In this document: in pieces, positions 1,617 through 41,420 of the stretch
Layout of the letters: the number at the start of each line of letters is the position of its first letter
How positions within the stretch are numbered: the stretch's first letter is position 1
Assembly (NCBI GenBank): GCA_046318155.1
Contig: JBKCUU010000047.1
Span: 1 to 64,000, forward strand
Length of the DNA stretch: 64,000 nt
Reading direction: 5' to 3'
Source: Bdellovibrio sp.
GTDB taxonomy: Bacteria; Bdellovibrionota; Bdellovibrionia; Bdellovibrionales; Bdellovibrionaceae
Translations under genes and position numbers: made by a program
The notes under the pieces: generated by a model
Seen by the model: only the letters and a program-made list of their open reading frames with translations
Told to the model about the DNA's origin: nothing
Database searches by the model: none

Positions 1617-2030
1617 TTAGGCCTCTGCGATGACTTTGAATTCAACGTGGATGGGGGTGGGCAGGGCTCCCACCTCAATCGTCGTCCGTGTAGCCTGAAT
1701 CGTTGAAAAGTGCTTGGCGTACACGGCATTGAACGCTTTGAAATCACGCTTCATGTCGGTGAGAAACACCTGCACGTCAACGATTTTTTCAAAACTGCTG
1801 CCCGATGCTTCAAGGATGTTTTTAATATTCTCAATAACCGATTCTGTCTGCACGGTGACGTCGTACCACTGCACATTGCCATTGACGTCTTTTTGCACTC
1901 CGGGGATGTCTGTCGTCCCGGGCTTACGCGGTCCTACGCCCGATAAAAACAAGAGCGAACCAACTTTGCGCGCATGGGGGTAAGCTCCTACAGGTTCGGG
2001 TGCTTTCTTGCTGTTGATAATCGTACTCAT
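1617..2030 (-). CDS. RidA/YjgF family protein, probable 2-aminomuconate deaminase
   Basis: APEPVGAYPHA, FNAVYAKHF, RTTIEV..LP...VEFKVIA; context with aminomuconate pathway genes. Confidence 0.88.
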   Translation of the reverse strand: MSTIINSKKAPEPVGAYPHARKVGSLLFLSGVGPRKPGTTDIPGVQKDVNGNVQWYDVTVQTESVIENIKNILEASGSSFEKIVDVQVFLTDMKRDFKAFNAVYAKHFSTIQATRTTIEVGALPTPIHVEFKVIAEA

Positions 2031-3109
2031 GGCAGCTCCACATCAAAGTACCAACGGTCATGATCAGGATCCCAATCATCCCACGTTGGAATTTTTTCTA
2101 AGGATGAAAGTAAACTTTCGGGAACAAGACCCGGGACTAAAAACGCTTTTTGCCGCCGCAAAGAATAGGGGTTGCGAAGCCCAAACCCTAGAGTTCCTAA
2201 AATTCCGCGCGCCACATACCACGTCGCCTGCGGATTCCAACCGTGGGCAATTTTGATCACGACGCCAAGCCCTTCGGGAAAATCCGGATGCTCAATCGCC
2301 ATCCCCAGTAAACCATCAGCACCTTCTTTGGCGATGACCTTACCTCCACAAGATTTCATGATCGTGGTATCAAGCCTGTTAAATCCCCCGACCAAATCGG
2401 GATGACGGATCATCGACTCCCAAATCCAGTCTTCATTTTTAGTTTGAGCTAAACCCGCATAGCACTGGGCCAGTTCTTTAACGGTCATCGACACCGTCGG
2501 CAAACCATCCCCATCACGCGCGATCCGAAGTGGCGCCCAGCTGCTGCCAAGATATCGGCGCACAACTTTGATGTACTCTTGAAAGACTTGGTGATTTGGC
2601 AGCGTATAACCCGCGCGGCTCCAACCTTTGAGCCGGCAACCCAGCAAGATACCCGCGTGATGACCCGAGGAGTTGTTGTACCAGCGCCTGGGACGGCGCA
2701 CTTGCCGGCCAAACTGCACCAAAGGCAAATCAAGAGGCGTTTGCATCAGGCCCCACTCGGACTCATTCAGCAAACTTTGCGAGGCTTCGACGTGTTCAGC
2801 GGCCCCGTTGTGAGACGAAACGCTGATGGCTTTTTGCGTCCAATCCGTTGTGGTCTCGAGCTCTTTCGAGAAGACCTTCATGTACATGAGCTTCATCATG
2901 CTTCGGCCGTAGCACAAAACATCACCGCCAAAAGAATGGACCAGCTTGTCGCCACTAAACCAGGCCACCGCGCCGTGAATGGTATTTTCACTCACACCAT
3001 TGCGGCGGTAATCCACCAAAGGCTCCCAGGCGACGTCACGTCCGGTCGGTAAACCCTTCACTTGATCCCCGAATGGACTCTTGGGGTAATTGCGAGAACC
3101 CGAAGTCAT
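2027..3109 (-). CDS. Class 3 (Rhizobium etli-type, asparaginase II) asparaginase homolog with substituted metal ligands
   Basis: RSMMK (RSxxK), SSHNG, NNSSGHHAG (cf. NCSGKH), RDGDGLP (cf. DGC), AKEGADG; ATGA overlaps with both neighbours. Confidence 0.8.
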   Translation of the reverse strand: MTSGSRNYPKSPFGDQVKGLPTGRDVAWEPLVDYRRNGVSENTIHGAVAWFSGDKLVHSFGGDVLCYGRSMMKLMYMKVFSKELETTTDWTQKAISVSSHNGAAEHVEASQSLLNESEWGLMQTPLDLPLVQFGRQVRRPRRWYNNSSGHHAGILLGCRLKGWSRAGYTLPNHQVFQEYIKVVRRYLGSSWAPLRIARDGDGLPTVSMTVKELAQCYAGLAQTKNEDWIWESMIRHPDLVGGFNRLDTTIMKSCGGKVIAKEGADGLLGMAIEHPDFPEGLGVVIKIAHGWNPQATWYVARGILGTLGFGLRNPYSLRRQKAFLVPGLVPESLLSSLEKIPTWDDWDPDHDRWYFDVELP

Positions 3110-4092
3110 GCCTCGTCCTCGTCTTGTAAGCCCGCATTCAGCGTTTGGCTGTTCATCCCGCGGCTCTCAGCCAGTGACGGCCCTAAGACATTGCGCTCAC
3201 CCGTATAAAACTCGGGCGAGTCTTCATCAAACTCGAGATCCCGCGCCGAGAACTCGGTCGGCACTAAACACACAACCGCACTTCCGGTTCCGCACACGGG
3301 CTCATAGGCCAAGACTTCACCCTTGTAGCGGTTGTGGGGACCAGCCACGGTCGACAACCACCAAAGTGGCTTGAAGTTGTTTACTTTTTTAACGCGAGCT
3401 TCTTTTTGAATTTGGCGCGAGAGCTGAGACAGATCCTCGAGCCGTCCTTTTTCAAAAAACTCGATCATTTTCAAATTCCACTCTTGGTCTTTGAGCGAGT
3501 GGATTTTGTCATTTTTGGGATCAATAAAAGTTTGATGCAATCGATTTGAAAGTGTCGAGATCACAATGGCCACGGCTTTTTTGTTTTGCTCTTTCAGCGC
3601 GTCGAGCGTGGCTTTCGCCAAAACCACGGTTTCGGCGCGGTCGGCATACATGTTCGAAGACAAAATCACCGCGGGCAAACGGTTCTCGGGATTCACAAGC
3701 TTCAAAGCGACGACCGAGCCCGTGTCGATCGGAAAGCCGTGATAATCAACTCCGCGCATATGCAGGCCGCGCTTTTCACCATGCGCGACGATTGCTTTGG
3801 CGATTTTGGAGTCCATGTTGAATTTGTAGGGAATGCTGCCCAGATCATGAAACTCTTCATCGACGTGCACCCATTCGCAAACTTCGCGGCACTGCACCTG
3901 ATGACCCAGCACTGAAGGCCACATCGTCGAGTAGATCAAAATGACCTCAGCCCCCGAAGATTCAATCTCGGCGCGCACCTTTTCAAAAGCTTGCCGAAGG
4001 TTACCATAACCCGGATTCGCCTCGGGCGTTAGAAGCGGCTGAGGCAATCCCGGAAGAACAAAACTTTTCACAACAAGATTTTGCGGGCTCAT
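3106..4092 (-). CDS. amnA: 2-aminophenol 1,6-dioxygenase alpha (non-catalytic) subunit, LigB family
   Basis: LigB fold, GFPIDTG motif, Fe-ligand His positions replaced (PGLPQP, STMW); ATGA-coupled to the beta subunit. Confidence 0.8.
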   Translation of the reverse strand: MSPQNLVVKSFVLPGLPQPLLTPEANPGYGNLRQAFEKVRAEIESSGAEVILIYSTMWPSVLGHQVQCREVCEWVHVDEEFHDLGSIPYKFNMDSKIAKAIVAHGEKRGLHMRGVDYHGFPIDTGSVVALKLVNPENRLPAVILSSNMYADRAETVVLAKATLDALKEQNKKAVAIVISTLSNRLHQTFIDPKNDKIHSLKDQEWNLKMIEFFEKGRLEDLSQLSRQIQKEARVKKVNNFKPLWWLSTVAGPHNRYKGEVLAYEPVCGTGSAVVCLVPTEFSARDLEFDEDSPEFYTGERNVLGPSLAESRGMNSQTLNAGLQDEDEA

Positions 4093-4973
4093 GTGAAATC
4101 CCTCCACTCGACAATCGCATTGCCGGTGCCGATAACGGTGCCATACGCGTGCACGACCGCTGGCTTGGTCGGAAAATTCATCGAGGCCAAGAGCCAGCTC
4201 AAGGCACCCGAGTCGGTTTCGGCTATGGCCTGCTCGGTAAAATCCGGAACCAAATCAAAAACTTGCTTGGACTTTCCGGCCTTGAACATTTCGATGAGCT
4301 TCATATCCCACAAATACTGGGAGTGGTTGTAGATATGTTCCTGGCTCATGTCTTCAGGCAGCGGCGGTTCTTTGGTAAAGTGGCGATGCGAGAGCGAGTT
4401 GCTGGCCAGCAAAACGACTTTTTTGCCGGACTTCTCGATCGCGGCCCGCGTGATTTTGGCGAGCGCGAGCATTTCTTCTTGCATCACATCCGGTGAAAAA
4501 TAAGCCGAAGCCGCATGACTGGACAAAGACACAATCGGCTTGTCCCATTTGGGATTGGCTAAATGACAAGAGACGATCGTGCCGTAGTCGATCCGGTAAT
4601 CCGGGTTCTGCATAAGCTTCATCGGAAACTTTGCCATTGAAGCTTCACGGGCTAAGGCTTCAGCCATGGCCACATCGACTTTGAGATCGTAGTGATAACG
4701 AAACAAATGCGGGAACACAGGGTCGACCGACAAACCTTTAAAGTGCGGATGCGCCAGCACGTGAGTGCCCACATAAGTGCGCCAATGCGGCGACAAGACC
4801 ATGATCATGTCATAATCAAGAGAAGCTAAATTTTGACGGAGTTTTTCGTAGCCCCATCTTAAAGTTTCCCAGCCCCCTTCGGCCTTGGCTTCGTTCTGCG
4901 GAGGGTTCTCGGCATACACCAAATGCGGGGGGTGCGGAGCCAAGGCTCCAAGCACGATCTTTCCTGTTGCCAT
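4089..4973 (-). CDS. amnB: 2-aminophenol 1,6-dioxygenase beta (catalytic) subunit, LigB family
   Basis: PHPPHLVYAENP, SPHW, IDYGT, SLSHRH, AETD and YGTVIGTGNA motifs of AmnB/CnbCb. Confidence 0.88.
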   Translation of the reverse strand: MATGKIVLGALAPHPPHLVYAENPPQNEAKAEGGWETLRWGYEKLRQNLASLDYDMIMVLSPHWRTYVGTHVLAHPHFKGLSVDPVFPHLFRYHYDLKVDVAMAEALAREASMAKFPMKLMQNPDYRIDYGTIVSCHLANPKWDKPIVSLSSHAASAYFSPDVMQEEMLALAKITRAAIEKSGKKVVLLASNSLSHRHFTKEPPLPEDMSQEHIYNHSQYLWDMKLIEMFKAGKSKQVFDLVPDFTEQAIAETDSGALSWLLASMNFPTKPAVVHAYGTVIGTGNAIVEWRDFT

Positions 4974-6415
4974 TATGATGTCCTCACACAGACCGTCGTG
5001 GTCTCGGTAAAAAAGTCGATCGAATGAATTCCGCCCTCGCGGCCGATCCCGCTGTGCTTCATTCCGCCAAAGGGCATTCGCAAATCACGGTGCAACCACG
5101 TGTTGATCCACACCGTGCCCACGCGCAACTCTCCTGCCATCTTTTGGGCCTTGCTTAAGTTTTCGGTCCAAACAGTCGCCGACAAACCGTACTTCACGTC
5201 GTTGGCTTTTTGCACAACTTCTTCAATCGAATCAAAGGCATGAATCGTCACGACGGGGCCAAAAATTTCTTCTTGCACGCAGCGGGAGTCTTGCGCCAAT
5301 CCCGACAAAACCGTGGGCCTCAGCCAAAAGCCCTGCTGCAAGTCCCCGCTCATCAAAGGAACGGTGCCGCCCGCTTCAATGCGGCCACCTTCGCTGACGG
5401 CAAGATCGATATAGGACCGAACCTTTTCCCAGTGCGCTTTAGAAACCAAAGGCCCCATGAAACTTTTGTCACTGCGAGGATCACCCACCGTGAGTTTCTC
5501 AGTCTCGGCGACAAATTGTTTCACGAAAGAATCATAGATCGAGCGCTCGACATAAATGCGCGAGCCGCACAGACAAATTTCGCCTTGATTTAAAAAGCTC
5601 GACCGCAAGGTCATCGCGAGCGCTTTTTTCAAATCGGCATCGGCAAAAATAATGTTTGGATTTTTGCCGCCAAGTTCGAGCGAAACTTTTTTAAAATGTT
5701 CGGCCGAAGCTTCTAAAATCTTTCGGCCGGTGGCGGTGCCCCCGGTAAACGAGATGAGCGGAACATCGGGATGGCGCACCAGCGCATCGCCCGCTTCGTG
5801 GCCCAAGCCATAAACGATATTCAAAACTCCGGCAGGCAATCCGGCTTCAACACAAACATCCGCAAGCAAGTCGGCCGTCATCGAGGTCATCTCAGACGGT
5901 TTGCAAACCACGGTGTTCCCACAGGCCAGCGCCGGCGCAATTTTCCAGGTCAGCAAATACAAAGGCAAATTCCAAGGCGAGATCAATCCGGCCACGCCGA
6001 CAGGCTTGCGGCTGACATAGTTAAGCGTGTGCGCATCCGTCGTCGACTCCTCTTCTTGCGCCAAAATCACTTGCGCGAAAAAACGAAAGTTCAGGACCGC
6101 TCGGCTGATATCCATCGAAGCCGCTAAATGGACGGGCTTGCCTTGGTCTTGGCTTTCGAGCCGGGCAAATTCATCCGCACGAGCTTCAATCAAATCAGCA
6201 ATCTTGAGCAAGAACTTTGAACGCTCCGCCGCTGACGTGCGCGACCACGAGGCAAAGGCTTGGTGGGCCGAGGTCACGGCCGCATTCACATCTTGCTTTG
6301 ACCCTCTGGCCAAAAAAGAGAAGACTTGTCCTGTCGCGGGATTCACGTTTTCGAGAAATTGCCCACCCAATGGAGAGGTTTTTTTCGCATGAATAAAATG
6401 AAGAATTTTTTGCAT
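4973..6415 (-). CDS. amnC: 2-aminomuconate/2-hydroxymuconate semialdehyde dehydrogenase (ALDH8-like)
   Basis: ISPWNLPLYLLTWKIAPA, ELGGKNP, NQGEICLCGSR, EEIFGPV, RDLRMPFGGMKHSGIGREGG. Confidence 0.9.
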   Translation of the reverse strand: MQKILHFIHAKKTSPLGGQFLENVNPATGQVFSFLARGSKQDVNAAVTSAHQAFASWSRTSAAERSKFLLKIADLIEARADEFARLESQDQGKPVHLAASMDISRAVLNFRFFAQVILAQEEESTTDAHTLNYVSRKPVGVAGLISPWNLPLYLLTWKIAPALACGNTVVCKPSEMTSMTADLLADVCVEAGLPAGVLNIVYGLGHEAGDALVRHPDVPLISFTGGTATGRKILEASAEHFKKVSLELGGKNPNIIFADADLKKALAMTLRSSFLNQGEICLCGSRIYVERSIYDSFVKQFVAETEKLTVGDPRSDKSFMGPLVSKAHWEKVRSYIDLAVSEGGRIEAGGTVPLMSGDLQQGFWLRPTVLSGLAQDSRCVQEEIFGPVVTIHAFDSIEEVVQKANDVKYGLSATVWTENLSKAQKMAGELRVGTVWINTWLHRDLRMPFGGMKHSGIGREGGIHSIDFFTETTTVCVRTS

Positions 6416-6523
6416 CGGCCACAGTCTTTGAGAGCCACAGGATTTCGTCAAGAAAGAACCCTGTTTTCATTGGGAGAACGCTTCGGCTTGACCCCTCTGG
6501 CAGACTCTTCGAAGATTCTAGTC

Positions 6524-7744
6524 ATGATGATAACTCTTGTCCTCTCGATTTTGATTTCAGCTTGCGCGTCGGCCCCGGTGGAGATGCAACCTTCAGCGCG
6601 CCGCGCCGAGCTTTTCCCACTGATGAACCCACCCCTGCTCAGCGCCGAGAGCGAGGTGGCCCTGGGCGGCTTTTCGGCTTTGGCCTATGACGGCGTGGAT
6701 GCTGAAGGATCGCACGTCTTTTGGGCGACGACCGACCGTGGCCCCAATGCACCCAGCTATGAACAAGACAAGAAAAAGGACCAAGAGTTTCGCCCTTTTT
6801 TGATTCCTGATTTTCAGCCCACCTGGGTCAAGTTTAAACTGAACAAAGCGACCCGCCAAATCGAAGTGCTGTCGCAAACGCCACTCACCACGTCGAATGG
6901 CAAACCCCTGACCGGTCTTCCCAACCTCGAACAGAGCAAAAAGCATCCCGGCGATGAAATCCCCGTCAACACCAAAGGTGAAGTCATCGCGATGGATTTG
7001 ATGGGTTTGGACACCGAGGGTTTTTGCATTGATCAAAAAAACTTTGTCTGGATGGTCGAGGAGTACCGACCCTCGATCTTGAAGTTTGATCGCGATGGCA
7101 AACTTCTTCGTCGCTACGTCCCCATGGGATCTTTTGGTGTGCGCGAAATTAAAATGATCGATGCCGAGTACGGACGTGATTTGGTTCAGCAATCTTTGCC
7201 AAAAGAATTGAGTGATCGCAAACGCAACCGCGGCTTTGAGGGCGTGGCCTGCTTTAAAAACAAAGTCTACGCCATCATGCAAAGCCCTCTCAAAGGCGAA
7301 GGCAATAAAGTACGCTTGATCGAATTTGATCCCGAGAAAGAAGAAGTCAGCCGGGAGCTTGTCTATAAACTCCAAGACAAGGAGCAAGCCGATAAACTTG
7401 GCGACCTCACCACCGATGGCCACACACTTTACGCCATTGAACAAAATGGCGAGACCGGCAAGAACAGCATTCACCAGGTCTATAAAGTCACGCTGCCGGA
7501 CGAAAAATCAAAAGACCTCGAAGTTCAAAAAGAACTCTTTGTGGATCTTGTCAAAATGGGCTTCTCGGCTTTTGAAAAGGTCGAAGGGCTTGCGTTTGTC
7601 AGCCCCAATGTTTTAGCGGTTGTGAGTGATAATGACTTTGGCTTGACCGGATCGCTGAACTTAAAAACAGGACTCGTTCCGATGGGCACAGCAAAACGCA
7701 CGACCTTGGGACTTATCCCAGTCGCGGCGCCACCTGCTCCATAA
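6524..7744 (+). CDS. Esterase-like activity of phytase family lipoprotein (beta-propeller)
   Basis: Lipobox ISAC; GGFSAL, TDRGPN, DTEG, EEYRPSI, NRGFEG, KVEGLA, SDNDFG motifs. Confidence 0.85.
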   Translation: MMITLVLSILISACASAPVEMQPSARRAELFPLMNPPLLSAESEVALGGFSALAYDGVDAEGSHVFWATTDRGPNAPSYEQDKKKDQEFRPFLIPDFQPTWVKFKLNKATRQIEVLSQTPLTTSNGKPLTGLPNLEQSKKHPGDEIPVNTKGEVIAMDLMGLDTEGFCIDQKNFVWMVEEYRPSILKFDRDGKLLRRYVPMGSFGVREIKMIDAEYGRDLVQQSLPKELSDRKRNRGFEGVACFKNKVYAIMQSPLKGEGNKVRLIEFDPEKEEVSRELVYKLQDKEQADKLGDLTTDGHTLYAIEQNGETGKNSIHQVYKVTLPDEKSKDLEVQKELFVDLVKMGFSAFEKVEGLAFVSPNVLAVVSDNDFGLTGSLNLKTGLVPMGTAKRTTLGLIPVAAPPAP

Positions 7745-8939
7745 AGATTCGCATTGAGGCCTTCACGGCCTCGTTGTCGTGATTGTTAAAATCAAACCAC
7801 AGCATCAGTCGGTCTTCGGGGTGGTACTTGGCTTTGATGAGCTCAGTCACCTGAGCCGCATTCCCCGCAATCGTATTTGAGACGGCCGATGCGACCTTGG
7901 CGGGATCCAGCGTTTTCTCCATCGCTTTCCAATAATTTTCCCACGCACGCTTGGCTTGTGCTTTGGCCCGCTGGCTTTGTTCAGGAGGTGAAAGCCCTGG
8001 CGTCTCGTCTAAAAACAGCAGCACCGTTCGTGGCATCAGGTCTCGGCGCCAAGCACCGCCGTCTTTGTGATAGTGCTGCCGCATCCGCGCGTGCGTGTCT
8101 TCGATGACCTTTTCGGGTGTAATCGAAAGATTAAAGACACCAACAGGAAAAAACTGATTCGCTGCAATTTGCACTTCGGGATCATGCGAACCCAAAGTTA
8201 AGCGCAAGTTTTCAAGCGGCGCTTGAAACGGAATGACGCCAACTTTATCAAATGTCCAGTGACATGCGAGCGGGATCTTTTCGCGCTTGGGTCCCCCCGT
8301 TTGCTTTTGATCGGCACTTTGCACGCGGTCCCATTGTGCCGGGTCACGAAAATCCTGAGCTTGAAGAAACTGAATCGAAACATCTTTCGACGCCAATTTC
8401 TCCCCGCCCAAGAAACGTAAAAAGATCTCGGCCCCTTGAGCAAAATACTTATTCTTGATGACGTCCCAACCGGCTTTTTCAAGCTCGGTGCGAGCGACCA
8501 TCCCATACGGGGTGTTCGAAAACGGAAAGCGTCCTGCGGCAAACCCCAGTTCAAGCTTGCGTTTTGCAGATGACTGAAAAGAGTTGAGCATTAAAAAAGT
8601 CCGCACGGCCTCGGCATGGGCGATGGGCCCACCGTTACAGACAATATTTCGAATCGCAGAGCCGACATTGATTCGTTTTGTCTGTGAAAAAAGCAAATGT
8701 GCCACTTGCAGGATGTCGGTATTCAGTCCGATCTCGCCTTTAAAGTGCGGAATGACGGCGTCGGCGTTTTCTTTTTGAACTTGGCAGGACAGGTGAGTCT
8801 CGGCCACCCAAGCGGTTTCGTAACCCAGCTCATCGGCGAGGCGAGCTTGATCAAAAAAACTTTCAAACATTTGTCTTTCACTCGGCGTAAAACCGTCAAC
8901 TTCCGTTTGGCAAATCGAGAGAAAGACATCAAATTTCAT
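7713..8939 (-). CDS. LLM-class (luciferase-like) flavin-dependent monooxygenase
   Basis: ARLADELGYETAWVAETH, TKRINVGSA, LELGFAAG, C-terminal SMRIFMEQVAP. Confidence 0.88.
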   Translation of the reverse strand: MKFDVFLSICQTEVDGFTPSERQMFESFFDQARLADELGYETAWVAETHLSCQVQKENADAVIPHFKGEIGLNTDILQVAHLLFSQTKRINVGSAIRNIVCNGGPIAHAEAVRTFLMLNSFQSSAKRKLELGFAAGRFPFSNTPYGMVARTELEKAGWDVIKNKYFAQGAEIFLRFLGGEKLASKDVSIQFLQAQDFRDPAQWDRVQSADQKQTGGPKREKIPLACHWTFDKVGVIPFQAPLENLRLTLGSHDPEVQIAANQFFPVGVFNLSITPEKVIEDTHARMRQHYHKDGGAWRRDLMPRTVLLFLDETPGLSPPEQSQRAKAQAKRAWENYWKAMEKTLDPAKVASAVSNTIAGNAAQVTELIKAKYHPEDRLMLWFDFNNHDNEAVKASMRIFMEQVAPRLG

Positions 8940-9715
8940 AATGACGGCGTCCGTCCACCATCAACAGGAACGTTAATGCCCGAGATGTACGAAGCCGCGG
9001 GGCTCGCCAAAAATGCGATGGCTTCGGCCATTTCACGAGGCTCGCCAATGCGCCCAAGCGGAACAACAGATTTCCACTGCGATTCAATTTGCGATTCGGG
9101 AACTTGCTGCTTTTGAGCCGCAGCTCCGCGCAAAGAATCAAATCGTGAGGTGCGAATGAATCCGGGCAAAACATTATTGACAGTGACGCCAAACACGCCG
9201 ACTTCACCCGCCAATGTCTTGGCCCAATTGGCCATCGCGGCACGGGTTGTATTTGAAACACCCAGACCCGAGATGGGGGCTTTCACCGAAGTCGAGATCA
9301 CATTGATGATGCGTCCGTAAGACTTGGATTTCATACTGGGTAAAATTGTCTGCACAATCAGATGGGCCGCCAAAACGTGCGCGCGGATGGCGCCTTCAAA
9401 TTCATTGATGTCCGCATCAATCAAAGCGCCGCCTTTGGGTCCGCCTGAGTTGTTCACTAAAATGGTGACTCCCATTTGAGCAAGCTTTGGAAGAACTGCT
9501 TTTTTTAAAGACTCAAGGTCCGAAAGATCGGCCGAGATGACTTCGTGGCCAGTGCCGGGCAAGCGGCTTTTGAGTTCATCAAGTCGGTCCCTGTTGCGCG
9601 CCAGTAAGACCACTTGAGCTCCACGTTCGGCAAGCAAGAGCGAGGTCGCCTCGCCGATGCCTTGAGAAGCCCCGCACACCAGGGCTTTATGTCCCTTAAG
9701 ATCAAATGAATTCAT
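8936..9715 (-). CDS. SDR family oxidoreductase
   Basis: GASQGIG, ILVNNSGGP, SNTTR (atypical YxxxK site), YISGINVPVDGG. Confidence 0.9.
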   Translation of the reverse strand: MNSFDLKGHKALVCGASQGIGEATSLLLAERGAQVVLLARNRDRLDELKSRLPGTGHEVISADLSDLESLKKAVLPKLAQMGVTILVNNSGGPKGGALIDADINEFEGAIRAHVLAAHLIVQTILPSMKSKSYGRIINVISTSVKAPISGLGVSNTTRAAMANWAKTLAGEVGVFGVTVNNVLPGFIRTSRFDSLRGAAAQKQQVPESQIESQWKSVVPLGRIGEPREMAEAIAFLASPAASYISGINVPVDGGRTPSL

Positions 9716-9734: not shown

Positions 9735-10334
9735 TTAAAGACGCTTGGAAAGTTCTAAAACCTGTGGCGGGATCTGCGAAGGATCAAAAGCCCAGACAGC
9801 TTTGTGAAGCTCAGCATAAAGCCGCAAAGCGCGATTGAGGCAAAGGGCGCGAACGGCGGTGGTAAAATCGATTTGCAGACTGCACTTTTGATAAAAAGAC
9901 AGCGCTTCGGGCTTGAGCGCCGCGTTCTTATTGATCATGTCAGCCACCACTGCCAGCTGCACCGCCGCCTGACGAATCACCCGCGGCGTTCCGTGCAGTT
10001 CACTCGCGGGGAGCTCGCGCAGATCCTCAATTCGAGGCATCTCGTTCAAAACGCCTTTGGTGTAGGTCTTAAACTCAAACAAGGCAGCATCCGCCGCAGA
10101 GACCTGGGGGACGGGCGTCGGTGTGGGATCGACCTTGGTTCCTGATTCGATCTCGGCGATTTCTTTGAGCTGTTCATCGTCGTCTTTTTGATCGGCTTGG
10201 ATTTGCTCGCGGACTCGAAACTCTTCGGCGCGCTCTTGCGAGCTCAGGGCGTCCAGCTCTGTGAAATAAAACAGCCCTCCACCAGTCAAGATGAGGGCCG
10301 CTAAAATCATGAGTCGAAGTGTTGGCTTTGTCAT
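9735..10334 (-). CDS. Hypothetical membrane-anchored periplasmic protein
   Basis: 199-aa ORF with a single N-terminal TM helix and two Cys. Confidence 0.6.
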   Translation of the reverse strand: MTKPTLRLMILAALILTGGGLFYFTELDALSSQERAEEFRVREQIQADQKDDDEQLKEIAEIESGTKVDPTPTPVPQVSAADAALFEFKTYTKGVLNEMPRIEDLRELPASELHGTPRVIRQAAVQLAVVADMINKNAALKPEALSFYQKCSLQIDFTTAVRALCLNRALRLYAELHKAVWAFDPSQIPPQVLELSKRL

Positions 10335-10346
10335 AGGTTTCGAAAC

Positions 10347-11441
10347 CTATTGCAAGGACTCTGGAGTGTCATCCCATTCGACAACGACGCCTGCTTCTTG
10401 GGCTGCGCAGAAATCGGGGATTAAGCCCATGTTCTTCAGAAAAACACACAACTCAGCATCGGGGCTTTCGACTCTGGGCTGATCCCCCAACTTCAACGGA
10501 CTGATCACGCGACTTTCGCTGTCGAGGCGAAGAAGCGCGAGAACTTCCTTTTCATTGACGGTCAGGTCATCCATACCCGCCGCTAAAGACTGCAAGAAAA
10601 GCGCGTCCATTCGGTAAGGGCCATTCGCCGCAACGTCGCAAGCAGGCATGCCTTCTAAATTGTGCCCAACGGGGCAAGCCGCGTGAGCAAACAGGGCCGT
10701 CTTACCATTGCCATCACTGTGACGTGATTCGTGAAACAAAGTTCCCAATCGAAAAAAAGAGTACAAGCGTTCCGCCGCATTTGGAAAACCCAGCTGCTCG
10801 GCAATAGGAACAAAGAGTCCCGCGCCGATTTGAAAGATCCCTGCGCGCGCTGACTTCACGGGCACAGTGCCGATGCCATCGACGTTAAGACCCATCAGCA
10901 CGTTGTTCTGCTTGCCCAATAAATACAAAATTCCACCAACGTTCGACATGATGATCATGGGTCCCGACGAGGTGGGCGCTTCTTGATCCAAAGCCGCATC
11001 AGTGAGGGGTCCGGTCGCAACTAAATTGGGCTCAGTTCGGTTCATCCCGATCTGGGGCATGAGATCGGGATTGGGATACATCACGTTTGTGTCCAAAATC
11101 GCGATGGCTTTCTCATCAATCGTGAAATCTTCGCCCAAAATGACCTGCGCCCGCTCCTGCAACCAAGGCTGCAAGTACTCGGGCGTCATTGCGGGAACTT
11201 TATAGATCCGAGCGGCTTCACCATCGACATCTTTAAATTTGAGAGAATCGAGCAAAACAAGGTCGGCATTGAGGCGCTCGCTCTGAGAGGCGGGGACACC
11301 GCTGGCATACTGGAGAACGACCTTGGGGGCAGCCCAGATCGGGGAGGCCGCGGCAAGAGTCACAGCCGTGACGACAAGCCGATAACGCAAGAACTGACAC
11401 ACGAAACGACTCACACGACCGCTGTTGATCCCATAAACCAT
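10347..11441 (-). CDS. Hypothetical secreted protein with HExxH motif (possible zinc metallopeptidase); start uncertain
   Basis: Signal-peptide-like segment, LFHESRH followed by His/Cys-rich HAACP...ACD. Confidence 0.6.
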   Translation of the reverse strand: MVYGINSGRVSRFVCQFLRYRLVVTAVTLAAASPIWAAPKVVLQYASGVPASQSERLNADLVLLDSLKFKDVDGEAARIYKVPAMTPEYLQPWLQERAQVILGEDFTIDEKAIAILDTNVMYPNPDLMPQIGMNRTEPNLVATGPLTDAALDQEAPTSSGPMIIMSNVGGILYLLGKQNNVLMGLNVDGIGTVPVKSARAGIFQIGAGLFVPIAEQLGFPNAAERLYSFFRLGTLFHESRHSDGNGKTALFAHAACPVGHNLEGMPACDVAANGPYRMDALFLQSLAAGMDDLTVNEKEVLALLRLDSESRVISPLKLGDQPRVESPDAELCVFLKNMGLIPDFCAAQEAGVVVEWDDTPESLQ

Positions 11442-11560
11442 AGATCCCACCCCTCGATCACAGGGACCTAACATTTCGAGACGCGCTGCGCAAATGGCCT
11501 TGCCGGCACCCCTGTCCATTTGCAAAGATTTCCAAAACCCACCTGTGAAAACGAGGACCT

Positions 11561-30467: not shown

Positions 30468-31493
30468 TTGTCTTCAAGACCCCAGGCTCCCCTCCAGCCC
30501 AAGTTGTTTCTCGCGCCGATGGAAGGCGTGATGGATCACTTCATGCGTGATGTGCTCACGCGCTTGGGCGGTATTGATCAAACCGTGTGTGAGTTTATTC
30601 GTATTACCGATCAAACGACGCCGGATGCTGTGTTTTTTCGGGATGCGCCCGAACTTAAAAACCAAAGCCGCACACCTGCGGGCACACCCGTTTTCATTCA
30701 ACTCTTGGGCGGTGATGTTTTGCGCTTAGCTGAACATGCCCGCATCGCTGTGCGCTTGGGCGCCATCGGTGTGGACCTTAACTTTGGCTGCCCAGCGAAG
30801 ACCGTGAACCGGCACGATGGCGGCGCCACTCTGCTTTTGTATCCTGAACGGATGCAAAAAATTGTGCGCGCGGTTCGTGATGCCGTTCCCGCTCACATCC
30901 CGGTGACGGCAAAAATTCGCTTGGGATTTACCGACCCGTCTGCGTGCATTGAGAGCGCCTCGGCCGTGGCCGCAGGTGGTGCCGACTGGATCACGGTTCA
31001 TTGCCGTACAAAAATGGACATGTACAAGCCGCCGGCTTACTGGAATTGGATTCCCGAAATCAAGAAACACCTTCAGATTCCCGTGATTGCCAATGGGGAC
31101 ATTTTCAATGTTCAAGACTTAAAGGCCTGCGCCGAAGTCACCGGGTGCGATCAGTTTATGATTGGCCGAGGCGCGCTGATCGATCCGTTTATCTTTTGCA
31201 AAATTAAAGGCCTCGACGTTGATTCGTCGTGGAGAGCCGTGGTCCGCTTGGTGCAAGATTTTTTTGTTCGCACGCGGGATGAGGTCTCACCGGCTTTTGC
31301 CCAAGCAAGAACAAAACAATGGCTGCGAGAACTGGCCAAGGGACACCATCCACAAGCCAAACTCCTGTTCGATGAAATCAAAGTTCTTCGTGACCCCGAA
31401 CTTTTGTATTCTCGCTTGCTTATGGCTTTGCCACAGACGAGCGAACTGACGAGCGAAGGGCCGTCACCACGGGTGACCACAACTCCAACGTAA
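30468..31493 (+). CDS. dusC: tRNA-dihydrouridine synthase, DusC-like
   Basis: LAPMEG, DLNFGCPAKTVN, VTAKIRLG, YKPPAYW, ANGDI. Confidence 0.88.
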   Translation: MSSRPQAPLQPKLFLAPMEGVMDHFMRDVLTRLGGIDQTVCEFIRITDQTTPDAVFFRDAPELKNQSRTPAGTPVFIQLLGGDVLRLAEHARIAVRLGAIGVDLNFGCPAKTVNRHDGGATLLLYPERMQKIVRAVRDAVPAHIPVTAKIRLGFTDPSACIESASAVAAGGADWITVHCRTKMDMYKPPAYWNWIPEIKKHLQIPVIANGDIFNVQDLKACAEVTGCDQFMIGRGALIDPFIFCKIKGLDVDSSWRAVVRLVQDFFVRTRDEVSPAFAQARTKQWLRELAKGHHPQAKLLFDEIKVLRDPELLYSRLLMALPQTSELTSEGPSPRVTTTPT

Positions 31494-37123: not shown

Positions 37124-37211
37124 TGTGCATATTTCTTATGCATTTTAACATTCCTATAAAATCACCGATCCTTTAAGTAAGCGCAGGATGCGCAAACTCA
37201 AAGGAGATCAC

Positions 37212-38348
37212 ATGCAAAGTATCAAATCCTCTTTAAAGCCTCTTATCGAATCCTCGCATGGCGTTCACGTCACAATCTACATGGTGAACGAGGGTGGACA
37301 AGAAAATATCATGCGCCAACTTCGACAATCGCTCGAAGAAGCCCACGACTTCCTTCAGCCCGTCATGTCTTTGCAGGAGCGGCAGATGCTTCTTGCTCCG
37401 CTCGATCATTTATTAGTTGAGGGACACGTTTTTCACCACATGCAGGGAAATATCGGCCTCTTCCGCACGAAAGACTCCTTTCGCATTTTGAGCATCCCCG
37501 TTGACATGCCTCGCAGTGTCCATGTCGCGACGACTTTTCATGTCAAGCCTTTGCTGCAATGGATTCAGGTCGACCAAGAATACTTTTTGCTTGGACTTGA
37601 TGGTCAACAGGCCCATCTTTACATCGGCAACTATCACTCCATCCAGTTGATTGAGTCCATCGCTTGCCCGCTCCAGAGCGGTCTTGCGGATAGCGCGAGC
37701 TTGGCAAAAAAAGGCGACGACGAAGAGATCTTGAGTGGTGAAATCCCTGTTTGGATCAGGAGCTGGATTTGGCAGCGAGCAAGCAAGACGAATCCTCTTT
37801 TTTTTATTGCTGGGCCCCCGGCCTATTGCCGACAAATTTTTAAAGGCATCAAGTACCATCGGACCGTCCGCGAGCCTCTTTTGACAAGCTTTTCGAAACC
37901 GGCTCTCGAAAGCTGCACCTCTGCGATCCAAGACTATCTAGAAAGTCATGCTCACCGTGAACTCGCTTCAGCGCTCGTCGAATATGAAGTCGCGTCCGAA
38001 GAAAATCGGACCCGGCGAAATATCTTTCAGATCGCAAAGGCGGCAGCGCTCGGAAAAGTACGCAAGCTCATTATCGCCAAGGACACCGTTATTCACGGCA
38101 AGTTGGATCTCAGAACTGGGGGCCTTGCGCTTCATCCGTTTGATTTGGACCATGAGGATGACGACATCTTGGATGACTTGGCGCAGGCGGTTCTTGCCCG
38201 CGGCGGCGAGGTGCTCGTTGTTGACAAGGCCCAGTTACCGAAGGGACGCGCGGCTCTGGCAATTCTGGATGAGTCTCTTCATCTGGAGCAATCGCCTTCG
38301 CCTTACCTGGGGTCGGCTCTCAATTCTCGCGGAACACCCCAACTCTAA
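37212..38348 (+). CDS. baeRF3-like (bacterial archaeo-eukaryotic release factor / Balon-like) protein, paralog 1
   Basis: HVTIY, FHVKPLL, IAKAAALGKVRKLII, DDILDDLAQAVLARGGEV (L7Ae-like C-domain); no GGQ in the middle domain. Confidence 0.75.
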   Translation: MQSIKSSLKPLIESSHGVHVTIYMVNEGGQENIMRQLRQSLEEAHDFLQPVMSLQERQMLLAPLDHLLVEGHVFHHMQGNIGLFRTKDSFRILSIPVDMPRSVHVATTFHVKPLLQWIQVDQEYFLLGLDGQQAHLYIGNYHSIQLIESIACPLQSGLADSASLAKKGDDEEILSGEIPVWIRSWIWQRASKTNPLFFIAGPPAYCRQIFKGIKYHRTVREPLLTSFSKPALESCTSAIQDYLESHAHRELASALVEYEVASEENRTRRNIFQIAKAAALGKVRKLIIAKDTVIHGKLDLRTGGLALHPFDLDHEDDDILDDLAQAVLARGGEVLVVDKAQLPKGRAALAILDESLHLEQSPSPYLGSALNSRGTPQL

Positions 38349-38372
38349 CATTTGAATAAACTGGAGAATTTT

Positions 38373-39506
38373 ATGCTCAAATCCACGACAAAAACTCTTT
38401 CGAATTTACTCACCTCTCAAGGCGGTGTTCACCTCACGATCTACTTGAACAATAACGGTGACATCATTGACCTTAAGGATCAGCTCCGAAAACGACTCCT
38501 CGAAGCAAAAGACTGGCTTGAGCCCGTGATGACGCCGGTTCAGCAAGAAAAATTTCTTGAGCCAATCAATGCACTCGTTTTGGACACACGACTTTTAAAA
38601 GACCTTAAGGGGGCTATCGGGCTGTTTAAAAACACCGACTCGTTTCGGTTGCTGGGGATTCCAGGAAGCGTCGATCCGAGCTACCACGTGGCAAGCTCTT
38701 ATCACGTCAAACCGCTCCTTCGTTGGATCCAGACAGATCAAGACTTCATGTTTCTGGGATTTGAAAAAACGCGTGTGCACCTGTACTCTGGAACGCAAAA
38801 TTCATTTAGACTGATCGATTCTGTCTTGTTTCCAGATCTCATTTCAAAATCATTGGACCACGGCGAAGACAATCTCAAAGGAGCACGCCAACAAAAAGCG
38901 CAAGTGAAGCAAACCTTGCTCTGGCTCAATCAATGGATTGCAGAACTCACGGCCCAGTCGATGCCTGCGCTTTTTGTGGCGGGTGAGGCGTCGCTGACAA
39001 AAGAATTCTTCAAGTTCTCCACTTACAAGAATTTGGTCCCGACGGCCTTGTCTGGTTTTTTTAATAAAAACGAAGCTCTCAGCTTTGCTCGGCGCATTCG
39101 AAATCTGCAAAAATCCGAATCTTCAAAAAAATTTGAAGGCGCACTCCAGGATTTTGAAATTGCCGACAAACAGAACCAGGCTTGTTCGGATCTCTTCGAG
39201 ATGACCGCGGCTGCCGTTAGAGGCCAAGTCCAAAAACTGGTCATTGCGGATGACATGAGCCTCTTCGGAAAAGTGGATCATGATTCAGGTGTTCTGACTC
39301 TGCATGCGCATGACCTCAACCACGAGGACGATTGCATTTTAGATGATCTGGCGCAGCTTGTTCTTAACCAAGGCGGGCAAGTGGTGATCGCAAAACAAAA
39401 TCAGATTCCTGACGGGCGCCCGGCACTCGCGATCTTGAATGACGAAAGACCCCAGACAACGGCGCACGCAGGTCTGCACGATGTCCTGCAAGAGAGGTTT
39501 GGATGA
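38373..39506 (+). CDS. baeRF3-like / Balon-like protein, paralog 2
   Basis: HLTIY, YHVKPLL, AAVRGQVQKLVI, DCILDDLAQLVLNQGGQV; collinear with paralog 1. Confidence 0.75.
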   Translation: MLKSTTKTLSNLLTSQGGVHLTIYLNNNGDIIDLKDQLRKRLLEAKDWLEPVMTPVQQEKFLEPINALVLDTRLLKDLKGAIGLFKNTDSFRLLGIPGSVDPSYHVASSYHVKPLLRWIQTDQDFMFLGFEKTRVHLYSGTQNSFRLIDSVLFPDLISKSLDHGEDNLKGARQQKAQVKQTLLWLNQWIAELTAQSMPALFVAGEASLTKEFFKFSTYKNLVPTALSGFFNKNEALSFARRIRNLQKSESSKKFEGALQDFEIADKQNQACSDLFEMTAAAVRGQVQKLVIADDMSLFGKVDHDSGVLTLHAHDLNHEDDCILDDLAQLVLNQGGQVVIAKQNQIPDGRPALAILNDERPQTTAHAGLHDVLQERFG

Positions 39507-40334: not shown

Positions 40335-41420
40335 CTATTCTCTGAGCGCTGTTCGCCGGGTCATCGAGACCCGCGAATTGAAAAAATCGGCCATCGCCTG
40401 CTGAATACTGTCGCCGGATTTCGCTATCATCACGGCTGAAAAAAGGGCGTGACCAAAATCAAGCCATACACTTGTCATTCGCACATGAAAACGAAATTTT
40501 CGCAGCGCCAAGCTTTCGCTGTGGGTTTCGAGCAAGATCATTAAAAGTTGGCGCAAACAACGCCCGTACTCGGCGCCCTCCTCTTCGGGTGTTTGCGGCG
40601 CCCTTTCACCCTCGCGGCCATAGGGAGCCGCAAGCCCCAGGCGCTCACCCACCTGCCACATCATCCAAGGCCGGGCGGCGAGCGCGCGGCCACTCATGGC
40701 GAGATCACACCCGGTTTCTTCAAGAATCTGAAAGACGTCATCGACGGTTTGCACATCGCCATTACCGATGACCGGAATGTTGACGTTCTCGCGAAGGCGC
40801 TTGATCTGATCCCAATCGGCGCTGCCTCGTCTTTTTTGTTCGGCCGTGCGAGGGTGCAAAGTGACCCAAGAGGCCCCGGCGTCTTGAAGTCTGTGAACGA
40901 AGTTAAGTAAAAAATGAAGGTCCCCTTGAGGTCCGGCACGCAACTTGACGCTGACGGGGACCGAACTATTCCTCACCGTCATGCGCACCACTTCGGCCGC
41001 ATAGGCCGGATCACCCATCAGCGCGACGCCATAATTGTGCTTGAGCGCTTTTTGTACGGGGCAGCCCATATTGATATCGATGCCCTCGGCTCCCCACTCG
41101 ATCAGGCGCGCGACGGTTTCTTGAATGGGGCCTTCTTCATTGCCTAAAATTTGCGGCACCAAGCCCGATTCAAAAGGGGCACGCAGGGTTTCGGGCGTTT
41201 GTCCGACTTTTTCTTTGGGGATTTTCCAAGAACTCAGCATTTCGGTGGGCCAAATGGTTTTGGCTCCCGCAGGCAGATAATTTCGTGTGACCAAGCGAAG
41301 CGCCATGTGCGACATCCCAACCATGGGAGCCATACAGAGGGGAAAATTCACCTCCCCGTTCAACAATGAGCGACGTGTCGCCCCAAAGCCGGGGGCACGA
41401 ATTGTCCTTAAGTCTTGCAC
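40335..41420 (-). CDS. tRNA-dihydrouridine synthase family (DusB-like)
   Basis: MAPMVG, IDINMGCPV, VSVKLR, LHPRT, GNGDV. Confidence 0.88.
   Translation of the reverse strand: MQDLRTIRAPGFGATRRSLLNGEVNFPLCMAPMVGMSHMALRLVTRNYLPAGAKTIWPTEMLSSWKIPKEKVGQTPETLRAPFESGLVPQILGNEEGPIQETVARLIEWGAEGIDINMGCPVQKALKHNYGVALMGDPAYAAEVVRMTVRNSSVPVSVKLRAGPQGDLHFLLNFVHRLQDAGASWVTLHPRTAEQKRRGSADWDQIKRLRENVNIPVIGNGDVQTVDDVFQILEETGCDLAMSGRALAARPWMMWQVGERLGLAAPYGREGERAPQTPEEEGAEYGRCLRQLLMILLETHSESLALRKFRFHVRMTSVWLDFGHALFSAVMIAKSGDSIQQAMADFFNSRVSMTRRTALRE

Follow-up and report, generated by a model that had tools for sequence, protein, structure and literature searches.

A seven-gene cluster in Bdellovibrio sp.

We studied a 64,000-nucleotide stretch of DNA from Bdellovibrio sp. 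(assembly GCA_046318155.1, contig JBKCUU010000047.1, positions 1 to 64,000), which we call the window; the genome that it comes from is the window genome. The window contains seven minus-strand genes, among them a luciferase-like monooxygenase (LLM), an asparaginase homolog, and a homolog of 2-aminophenol 1,6-dioxygenase (AmnAB). We are highly confident that these genes act in tryptophan breakdown, as a module that stands in for the middle steps of the kynurenine pathway. The seven genes, and one gene that interrupts them, are:

8936-9715, minus strand: SDR, an atypical short-chain reductase
7713-8939, minus strand: LLM, very divergent; predicted kynurenine Baeyer-Villiger oxygenase
6524-7744, plus strand: esterase-like phytase gene (PF13449, E = 6e-41), an insertion that is not part of the module; the open frame is 6326-7744 and 6524 is the likely start
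4973-6415, minus strand: aldehyde dehydrogenase (ALDH), by its PDB matches a homolog of the amnC-type 2-aminomuconate-6-semialdehyde dehydrogenase (AMSDH)
4089-4973, minus strand: amnB, homolog of the beta (catalytic) subunit of 2-aminophenol 1,6-dioxygenase
3106-4092, minus strand: amnA, homolog of the alpha subunit of 2-aminophenol 1,6-dioxygenase (E = 2e-48 to chain A of 3VSG)
2027-3109, minus strand: AsnII homolog, a serine hydrolase that has the class 3 asparaginase fold and a changed metal site (PF06089, E = 1e-46)
1617-2030, minus strand: RidA-family protein (PF01042), likely 2-aminomuconate deaminase

An earlier reading, made from the sequence alone, had assigned the seven minus-strand genes to these same families, and we confirmed all of the assignments. 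The stop/start overlaps that it described are also real: there are ATGA overlaps at the SDR/LLM, amnB/amnA, amnA/AsnII, and AsnII/RidA junctions, and TAATG at the ALDH/amnB junction. It did not mention the plus-strand phytase-like gene between LLM and ALDH, which splits the cluster of the window genome into two non-contiguous blocks (SDR-LLM and ALDH-to-RidA). Just one of 80 related loci (see below) has a phytase match at this place, and LLM abuts ALDH in many of the others, so the phytase is a local insertion.

The sequence-only reading was also correct that the cluster contains no kynU, kmo, HAO, or ACMSD, and none of them was found in the rest of the window genome, which is 95% complete. 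There was no KynU match above the cut-off, no KMO, and, in the search for ACMSD, no amidohydrolase-2 family gene. We found no HAO either; the control for this search gave no match, and the same model found HAO in 31 genomes of the phylum. Searching the window genome by tblastn with relatives' KynU, KMO, HAO, and ACMSD and with two FAH-family proteins gave nothing at E = 1e-4. With these two relatives' proteins as the queries, the window genome also has no match to 4-oxalocrotonate decarboxylase/hydratase (FAH family), and other genomes with LLM do contain such genes. TDO and a KynB-type cyclase, which the reading had expected to find in the genome, are both present, on another contig (C11). 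Nitroarene reductase and mutase genes are missing from the cluster, as was claimed; no genome-wide search for them was made.

Conservation of the module

We scanned GTDB genomes with the asparaginase homolog and obtained 447 confirmed stretches, of which we compared the best 80 (64-90% identity), with 10 kb of flanking sequence. The results in this section are for those 80 loci, many of which are cut by contig ends. Their records are titled Bdellovibrionales, Myxococcales, Deltaproteobacteria, Poseidoniales archaea, and Sulfidibacter corallicola, and the closest named relative is a Bdellovibrionaceae metagenome-assembled genome whose hydrolase is 90% identical. Two titles, Enterobacteriaceae (L019) and Streptomyces griseus (L054), do not match the content of the records. 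The synteny of L054 with the window is of the Bdellovibrio type, and both labels are apparently wrong.

The other genes of the module are often nearby: amnA in 70 loci, amnB in 66, RidA in 66, ALDH in 61, LLM in 55, and SDR in 52. All seven genes are found in 44 loci, and 78 have one or more of LLM, amnA, and amnB. In many of the loci the seven genes are contiguous, in variable order. The only other gene family that tracks the module is the KynB-type cyclase (5 loci). The synteny of LLM and the asparaginase homolog with amnAB elsewhere, on which the original proposal depended, is thus borne out. The same proposal had viewed the pathway as suited to a predator. The module is carried by several bacterial phyla and by marine archaea, and it is found in Acidobacteriota-type and myxobacteria-type genomes, so it is not special to predators.

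Gene context links the module to tryptophan

In several lineages, the module lies beside genes for the first steps of tryptophan breakdown. TDO is directly before LLM in three loci (L101, L115, and L137) and directly before SDR-LLM in two more (L136 and L164), and KynB adjoins or is fused to genes of the module. One locus (L140) has all of these genes in a single run, TDO-SDR-LLM-AsnII-ALDH-amnB-amnA-RidA-KynB. In two families, an AsnII-KynB fusion protein of 510-555 amino acids is encoded beside TDO, both in genomes with LLM and in genomes with KynU (L096-L111 and L116-L125).

One family shows an exchange in place. Two of its loci contain amnB-amnA and LLM (L103 and L107) and two contain HAO-ACMSD-KynU (L116 and L117). 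Both versions lie among the same neighbors, which are RidA, ALDH, two genes of the FAH family, and the gene for the AsnII-KynB fusion. The most economical interpretation is that LLM, the hydrolase, and AmnAB replace KMO, KynU, HAO, and ACMSD, and that they convert kynurenine to 2-aminomuconate semialdehyde. As there is no ACMSD, the substrate for ring cleavage should be without a carboxyl group.

Some genomes keep only the upper part of the module. TDO, LLM, and the hydrolase are retained without a LigB-family dioxygenase in all five genomes that were tested for this, one of which is a closed chromosome. LLM and the hydrolase therefore pay off as a pair without ring cleavage, as the release of an amino acid would. 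In the same way, three genomes keep KynU without HAO.

In five marine archaeal loci, the neighbor of SDR is an alpha/beta hydrolase that has an HGG motif (L020:18680-19435 and its equivalents in L021, L023, L025, and L033). We did not find a cyclase-family KynB in any of the three marine archaeal genomes that we tested. The HGG-motif protein is a candidate for an alternative kynurenine formamidase.

LLM and KynU are mutually exclusive in the profiled genomes

We searched for these genes in 151 genomes from the phylum of the window genome (which is included). TDO was found in 105 genomes, KynU in 34, KMO in 32, HAO in 31, LLM in 24, and amnB in 18. LLM never occurred together with KynU, KMO, or HAO, although among the TDO carriers one would expect 7.8 genomes to have both LLM and KynU. 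(A naive P value for the exclusion of LLM and KynU is 2e-5, which overstates the case because kin do not count as independent samples.) All 24 genomes with LLM contain TDO and an asparaginase-II homolog. The latter has two forms: in 12 genomes it is a stand-alone protein with at least 61% identity, and in the other 12 it is about 30% identical and is fused to KynB wherever the contig shows. All 18 genomes with amnB contain LLM. Neither the KynU route nor the LLM route was found in 47 of the 105 genomes with TDO, including 14 of the 15 other genomes from the window's own family.

Two other sets gave the same result. We chose 50 of the 80 hydrolase-bearing genomes so as to include records that were not from Bdellovibrio and loci without a flanking LLM. 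KynU was found in none of these 50 genomes, whose completeness is unknown, and LLM and TDO were found in 49 and 45 of them. In the phylum of S. corallicola, which we take to be the Acidobacteriota, LLM was found in 7 of 201 genomes and a KynU-like match in 63, and no genome had both. (Of the 63 matches, 35 are over the cut-off, and one of the 63 genomes, G223, is unpublished and enters the background count only.) All seven of those LLM genomes contain the stand-alone hydrolase. The exclusion of LLM and KynU is complete in all three sets, and the predictions that the module would co-occur with TDO and would exclude kynU, kmo, and HAO held when profiled.

These results bear on whether the cluster instead degrades some other precursor of aminophenol that is unrelated to tryptophan, such as benzoxazolinone, acetamidophenol, a phenazine, or a nitroarene. 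According to PMC10470539, the characterized AmnAB enzymes come from degraders of nitroarenes, and in the window genome TDO and KynB are not on the same contig as the module. However, several lineages have TDO directly before LLM or before SDR-LLM, with KynB next to the module or fused to part of it, and the exclusion of KynU has no exceptions in the three sets. We consider a role unrelated to tryptophan very unlikely.

A proposed route through 2-aminophenol

We propose the following route for the module, in place of the middle steps of the kynurenine pathway. TDO and KynB, which are assigned at the level of the family, would form kynurenine. LLM, using FMNH2 and O2, would insert an oxygen atom between the ring and the ketone of kynurenine, with migration of the electron-rich aminophenyl group. 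The product would be an ester of aspartate, its 2-aminophenyl beta-ester, and this would be prone to rearrangement to N4-(2-hydroxyphenyl)asparagine. The asparaginase-fold enzyme, via Ser70, would cleave this product to L-aspartate and 2-aminophenol. AmnAB, ALDH, and RidA are close homologs of characterized enzymes and would form 2-aminomuconate semialdehyde, 2-aminomuconate, and 2-oxohex-3-enedioate in turn, and SDR would reduce the last of these to 2-oxoadipate. N-formylkynurenine could undergo the same chemistry; we think that kynurenine is roughly twice as likely to be the substrate.

We are less certain of the intermediates than of the role of the module. The route probably passes through 2-aminophenol. 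That it does so by Baeyer-Villiger oxidation with release of aspartate is a prediction that we favor by a smaller margin.

Several observations weigh against this proposal. At 14-20% identity to any solved relative, the fold of LLM does not fix its reaction. No flavin reductase travels with the cluster in the 80 related loci; the window genome has one PF03358 gene, outside of the cluster, and no match to PF01613. The profiled genomes are related to each other instead of independent, and most of the assemblies are incomplete. TDO is a loose marker, since so many of the genomes that contain it carry neither route. AmnB departs from the solved enzymes 8IHG, 3VSG, and 7TXY at two residues beside active-site histidines, Arg65 and Arg197, and in the loop that follows residue 151, and AmnAB may act on a substituted substrate. 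The hydrolase has Ser/His/Asp in place of zinc ligands, which weakens the case for recognition of an aspartyl group. Finally, nine genomes with KynU, KMO, and HAO but without LLM keep the AsnII-KynB fusion with its core catalytic residues intact. The fusion's distance ratio to KynB is 1.41 for the 8 full-length proteins from KynU genomes and 1.31 for the 11 from LLM genomes. Because the constraint in KynU genomes is nearly equal, the fused hydrolase domain is not dependent on LLM. The fusions of KynU genomes could be genuine asparaginases, or they could be left over from a swap that happened recently.

Ring cleavage and the lower pathway

AmnB is similar to the three solved aminophenol dioxygenases (E = 1e-100 to 4e-103). 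According to PMC5291488, the iron ligands of the Comamonas enzyme are His13, His62, and Glu251, and its active site also includes Tyr129 and His195. The window's AmnB keeps all five residues, and they are invariant (as H14, H63, E252, Y130, and H196) in all 22 rows of our alignment. Its Arg65 and Arg197 correspond to Ile and to Trp/Leu in the characterized enzymes. Among the orthologs, R, Q, M, and T all occur at position 65, and the loop after residue 151 varies as well.

The two arginines could bind an anionic substituent, which would fit a reading in which LLM is a ring hydroxylase that replaces KMO and forms 3-hydroxykynurenine. AmnAB would then cleave a substituted aminophenol, and the hydrolase would take off the side chain, either before the ring is opened or afterwards. 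The mutual exclusion of LLM and KMO would fit with this too. But position 65 is not conserved, no ACMSD was found, and LLM and the hydrolase persist in genomes that lack the dioxygenase, where hydroxylation alone would yield nothing. Also, the hydrolase is a serine amidohydrolase, and we know of no evident means by which such an enzyme could cut the carbon-carbon bond of kynurenine without pyridoxal phosphate (PLP). We think that ring hydroxylation is unlikely, and we prefer the Baeyer-Villiger route with unsubstituted 2-aminophenol as the intermediate.

The remaining genes of the lower pathway resemble known enzymes or are shared with clusters that contain KynU. The top seven PDB matches of ALDH are all AMSDH (E as low as 1e-146). 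The window's RidA is 52-58% identical to the RidA proteins of canonical KynU clusters (L126-L132 and L134); RidA-family deaminases have been confirmed at this step in bacteria and fungi, according to a preprint (10.64898/2026.06.05.730449). SDR has Ser...Arg in place of the usual Tyr...Lys catalytic pair. Ser...Arg is found in 42 of 44 rows from the hydrolase loci and in all 9 rows from a second set of loci, 8 of which are from KynU clusters. Since SDR is also present in canonical KynU clusters, it belongs downstream. It likely reduces the carbon-carbon double bond of 2-oxohex-3-enedioate or of 2-aminomuconate, after ring cleavage. We also noticed fusions of AmnA with the RidA deaminase in two loci (L108:4737-6140 and L110:4232-5515).

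The monooxygenase

LLM has the TIM-barrel fold of luciferases and scores above the cut-off for PF00296. Its fold is nearest to luciferase alpha and to diketocamphane monooxygenase, and not to RutA, SsuD, or MsuD. It forms a family of its own, with 3189 proteins at E ≤ 1e-30 among the 8000 candidates that we scored. An LLM with Baeyer-Villiger chemistry on an acyclic ketone has been published (PMC12239570).

If LLM is a Baeyer-Villiger enzyme, it could also have the opposite regiochemistry and form O-anthraniloyl-serine. The hydrolase would split this to serine and anthranilate, and oxidative decarboxylation of anthranilate would give 2-aminophenol. This would also explain why LLM and the hydrolase are kept without ring cleavage, and it would explain the changed metal site of the hydrolase. 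However, no conserved gene in the 80 loci is left over for the conversion of anthranilate to 2-aminophenol, and the asparaginase fold acylates on the side chain of an amino acid. Furthermore, in Baeyer-Villiger reactions, the migration of an aryl group is normally favored over that of a primary alkyl group. We view anthraniloyl-serine as an improbable intermediate and favor the aminophenyl ester of aspartate.

A protein from the protist Andalucia godoyi (P0008, 1501 amino acids) also links LLM to a hydrolase, on the evidence of two database sequences. P0008 contains an LLM domain (40% identity) that is fused to a hydrolase domain similar to class-I glutamine amidotransferases (GATase). The Cys and His of the GATase-like domain are in place, and this is a different fold of side-chain acyl hydrolase. 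The protein also has an ApbE domain and, with weak support (score 0.88), a flavin-reductase-like end. The second sequence (P0115) is partial, is 55% identical to P0008, and has the same junction of LLM and GATase. So, a second fold of side-chain-amide hydrolase is attached to the same oxygenase. By its domain content, the A. godoyi fusion is a candidate for a single-chain eukaryotic version of the upper pathway. As a separate observation, one member of the LLM family (P0003) is recorded from a Micromonosporaceae bacterium, and that group carries the ARO microcompartment.

The asparaginase-fold hydrolase

The hydrolase has a ReAV-type fold (TM of about 0.68 to ReAIV and ReAV). Both Ser-Lys tandems are intact, including the counterpart of the Ser48 nucleophile, and R69, S70, K73, S99, D199, and K261 are invariant across 56 of 56 rows. 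In ReAV, zinc anchors the alpha-amino and alpha-carboxyl groups of the substrate, and loss of either Cys abolishes activity. The window's protein has S147, H150, and D201 instead of the Cys/Lys/Cys of the zinc site. It probably functions in the manner of a class 3 asparaginase, yet it lacks the zinc site of that class. In 45 stand-alone orthologs, the three residues are S/H/D (31 proteins), C/E/C (12), S/Q/D (1), or C/K/C (1), and C/K/C is kept in all 11 AsnII-KynB fusions. From the intact tandems, we predict that the window's enzyme releases aspartate from the ester or amide of 2-aminophenol.

Another role for the hydrolase would be as a co-regulated asparaginase or a clean-up amidase. LLM alone would then yield 2-aminophenol, with the ester hydrolyzed spontaneously or by other esterases. 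This would account for the nine KynU genomes without LLM that retain the fused domain with its full Cys/Lys/Cys. On the other hand, the stand-alone orthologs of bacteria and archaea retain 61-90% identity, and LLM is present in 49 of 50 such genomes. Only one of the 45 stand-alone orthologs keeps Cys/Lys/Cys, and the window genome has a separate class 3 asparaginase with the canonical Cys/Lys/Cys motif (G000:C33:7051-7866). We doubt that LLM acts alone, and we retain the hydrolase as the aspartate-releasing step of the proposed route.

Comparison to known systems

In its role the module resembles the kynurenine pathway, yet we do not count it as a member. Both have TDO, KynB, the dehydrogenase, the RidA deaminase, and lower genes that include the atypical SDR or the FAH family, and within the phylum, canonical kynurenine clusters have the flanking genes that the module has. 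Unlike the canonical pathway, the module has LLM, the asparaginase-fold hydrolase, and AmnAB in place of KMO, KynU, HAO, and ACMSD. By prediction, the amino acid that it releases is aspartate and not alanine, it has no need for PLP, and it bypasses the branch point to quinolinate and NAD.

Close homologs of AmnB, AmnA, and AMSDH, with the iron ligands and second-sphere residues kept, are found in the amn/cnb nitroarene pathway and in the ARO microcompartment of Micromonospora rosaria. Unlike these systems, the module's cluster lacks genes for a nitroreductase, a mutase, or shell proteins. The AmnAB homolog of the ARO microcompartment cleaves 2-aminophenol, and the natural upstream source of this 2-aminophenol is stated to be unknown in PMC10470539; passages of an earlier ARO catalog (PMC8217296) add nothing on this point. 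The module has a candidate for a natural upper pathway.

The hydrolase shares its fold and both Ser-Lys tandems with ReAIV and ReAV of Rhizobium etli. It is just 21-26% identical to them, their Cys135/Lys138/Cys189 correspond to Ser/His/Asp, and it is tied to a tryptophan module. Similarly, LLM shares the luciferase-type TIM barrel with LuxA and with type II Baeyer-Villiger enzymes (3,6-diketocamphane monooxygenase and the progesterone LLM of Caenibius tardaugens). It differs from them in its 14-20% identity, its separate family, and its proposed substrate, which is an aryl ketone of an amino acid.

We did not find this route described in the open-access literature that we searched (titles and the openings of abstracts). 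We consider it about evenly balanced whether the module is a second route for the complete breakdown of tryptophan, one that is PLP-free, found in several bacterial phyla, marine Poseidoniales archaea, and at least one protist, with the first kynurenine Baeyer-Villiger oxygenase and an N-aryl-asparagine hydrolase, and a natural source of 2-aminophenol. If so, there would be two new enzymatic reactions, and four enzymes of textbook tryptophan catabolism would be replaced via a different intermediate. The 2-aminophenol 1,6-dioxygenases, which are known from degraders of pollutants, would have a natural job. A large family of misannotated luciferases and asparaginases would be assigned functions, and the metabolism of predatory bacteria and of marine archaea would be modeled differently. 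Sulfidibacter corallicola M133 is a cultured carrier of the module, and the claim would be cheap to test with two purified proteins.

Other genes in the window

Upstream of SDR are two open reading frames (ORFs) on the minus strand (9735-11525) that have no match in Pfam or NCBIfam and are found in 2 of the 80 related loci. Farther away, at 37188-39506 (plus strand), an ORF with no family is followed by a release-factor-like protein of baeRF family 3. Two dihydrouridine synthase genes lie within 11 kb of each other, at 30468-31493 (plus strand) and 40335-41420 (minus strand).

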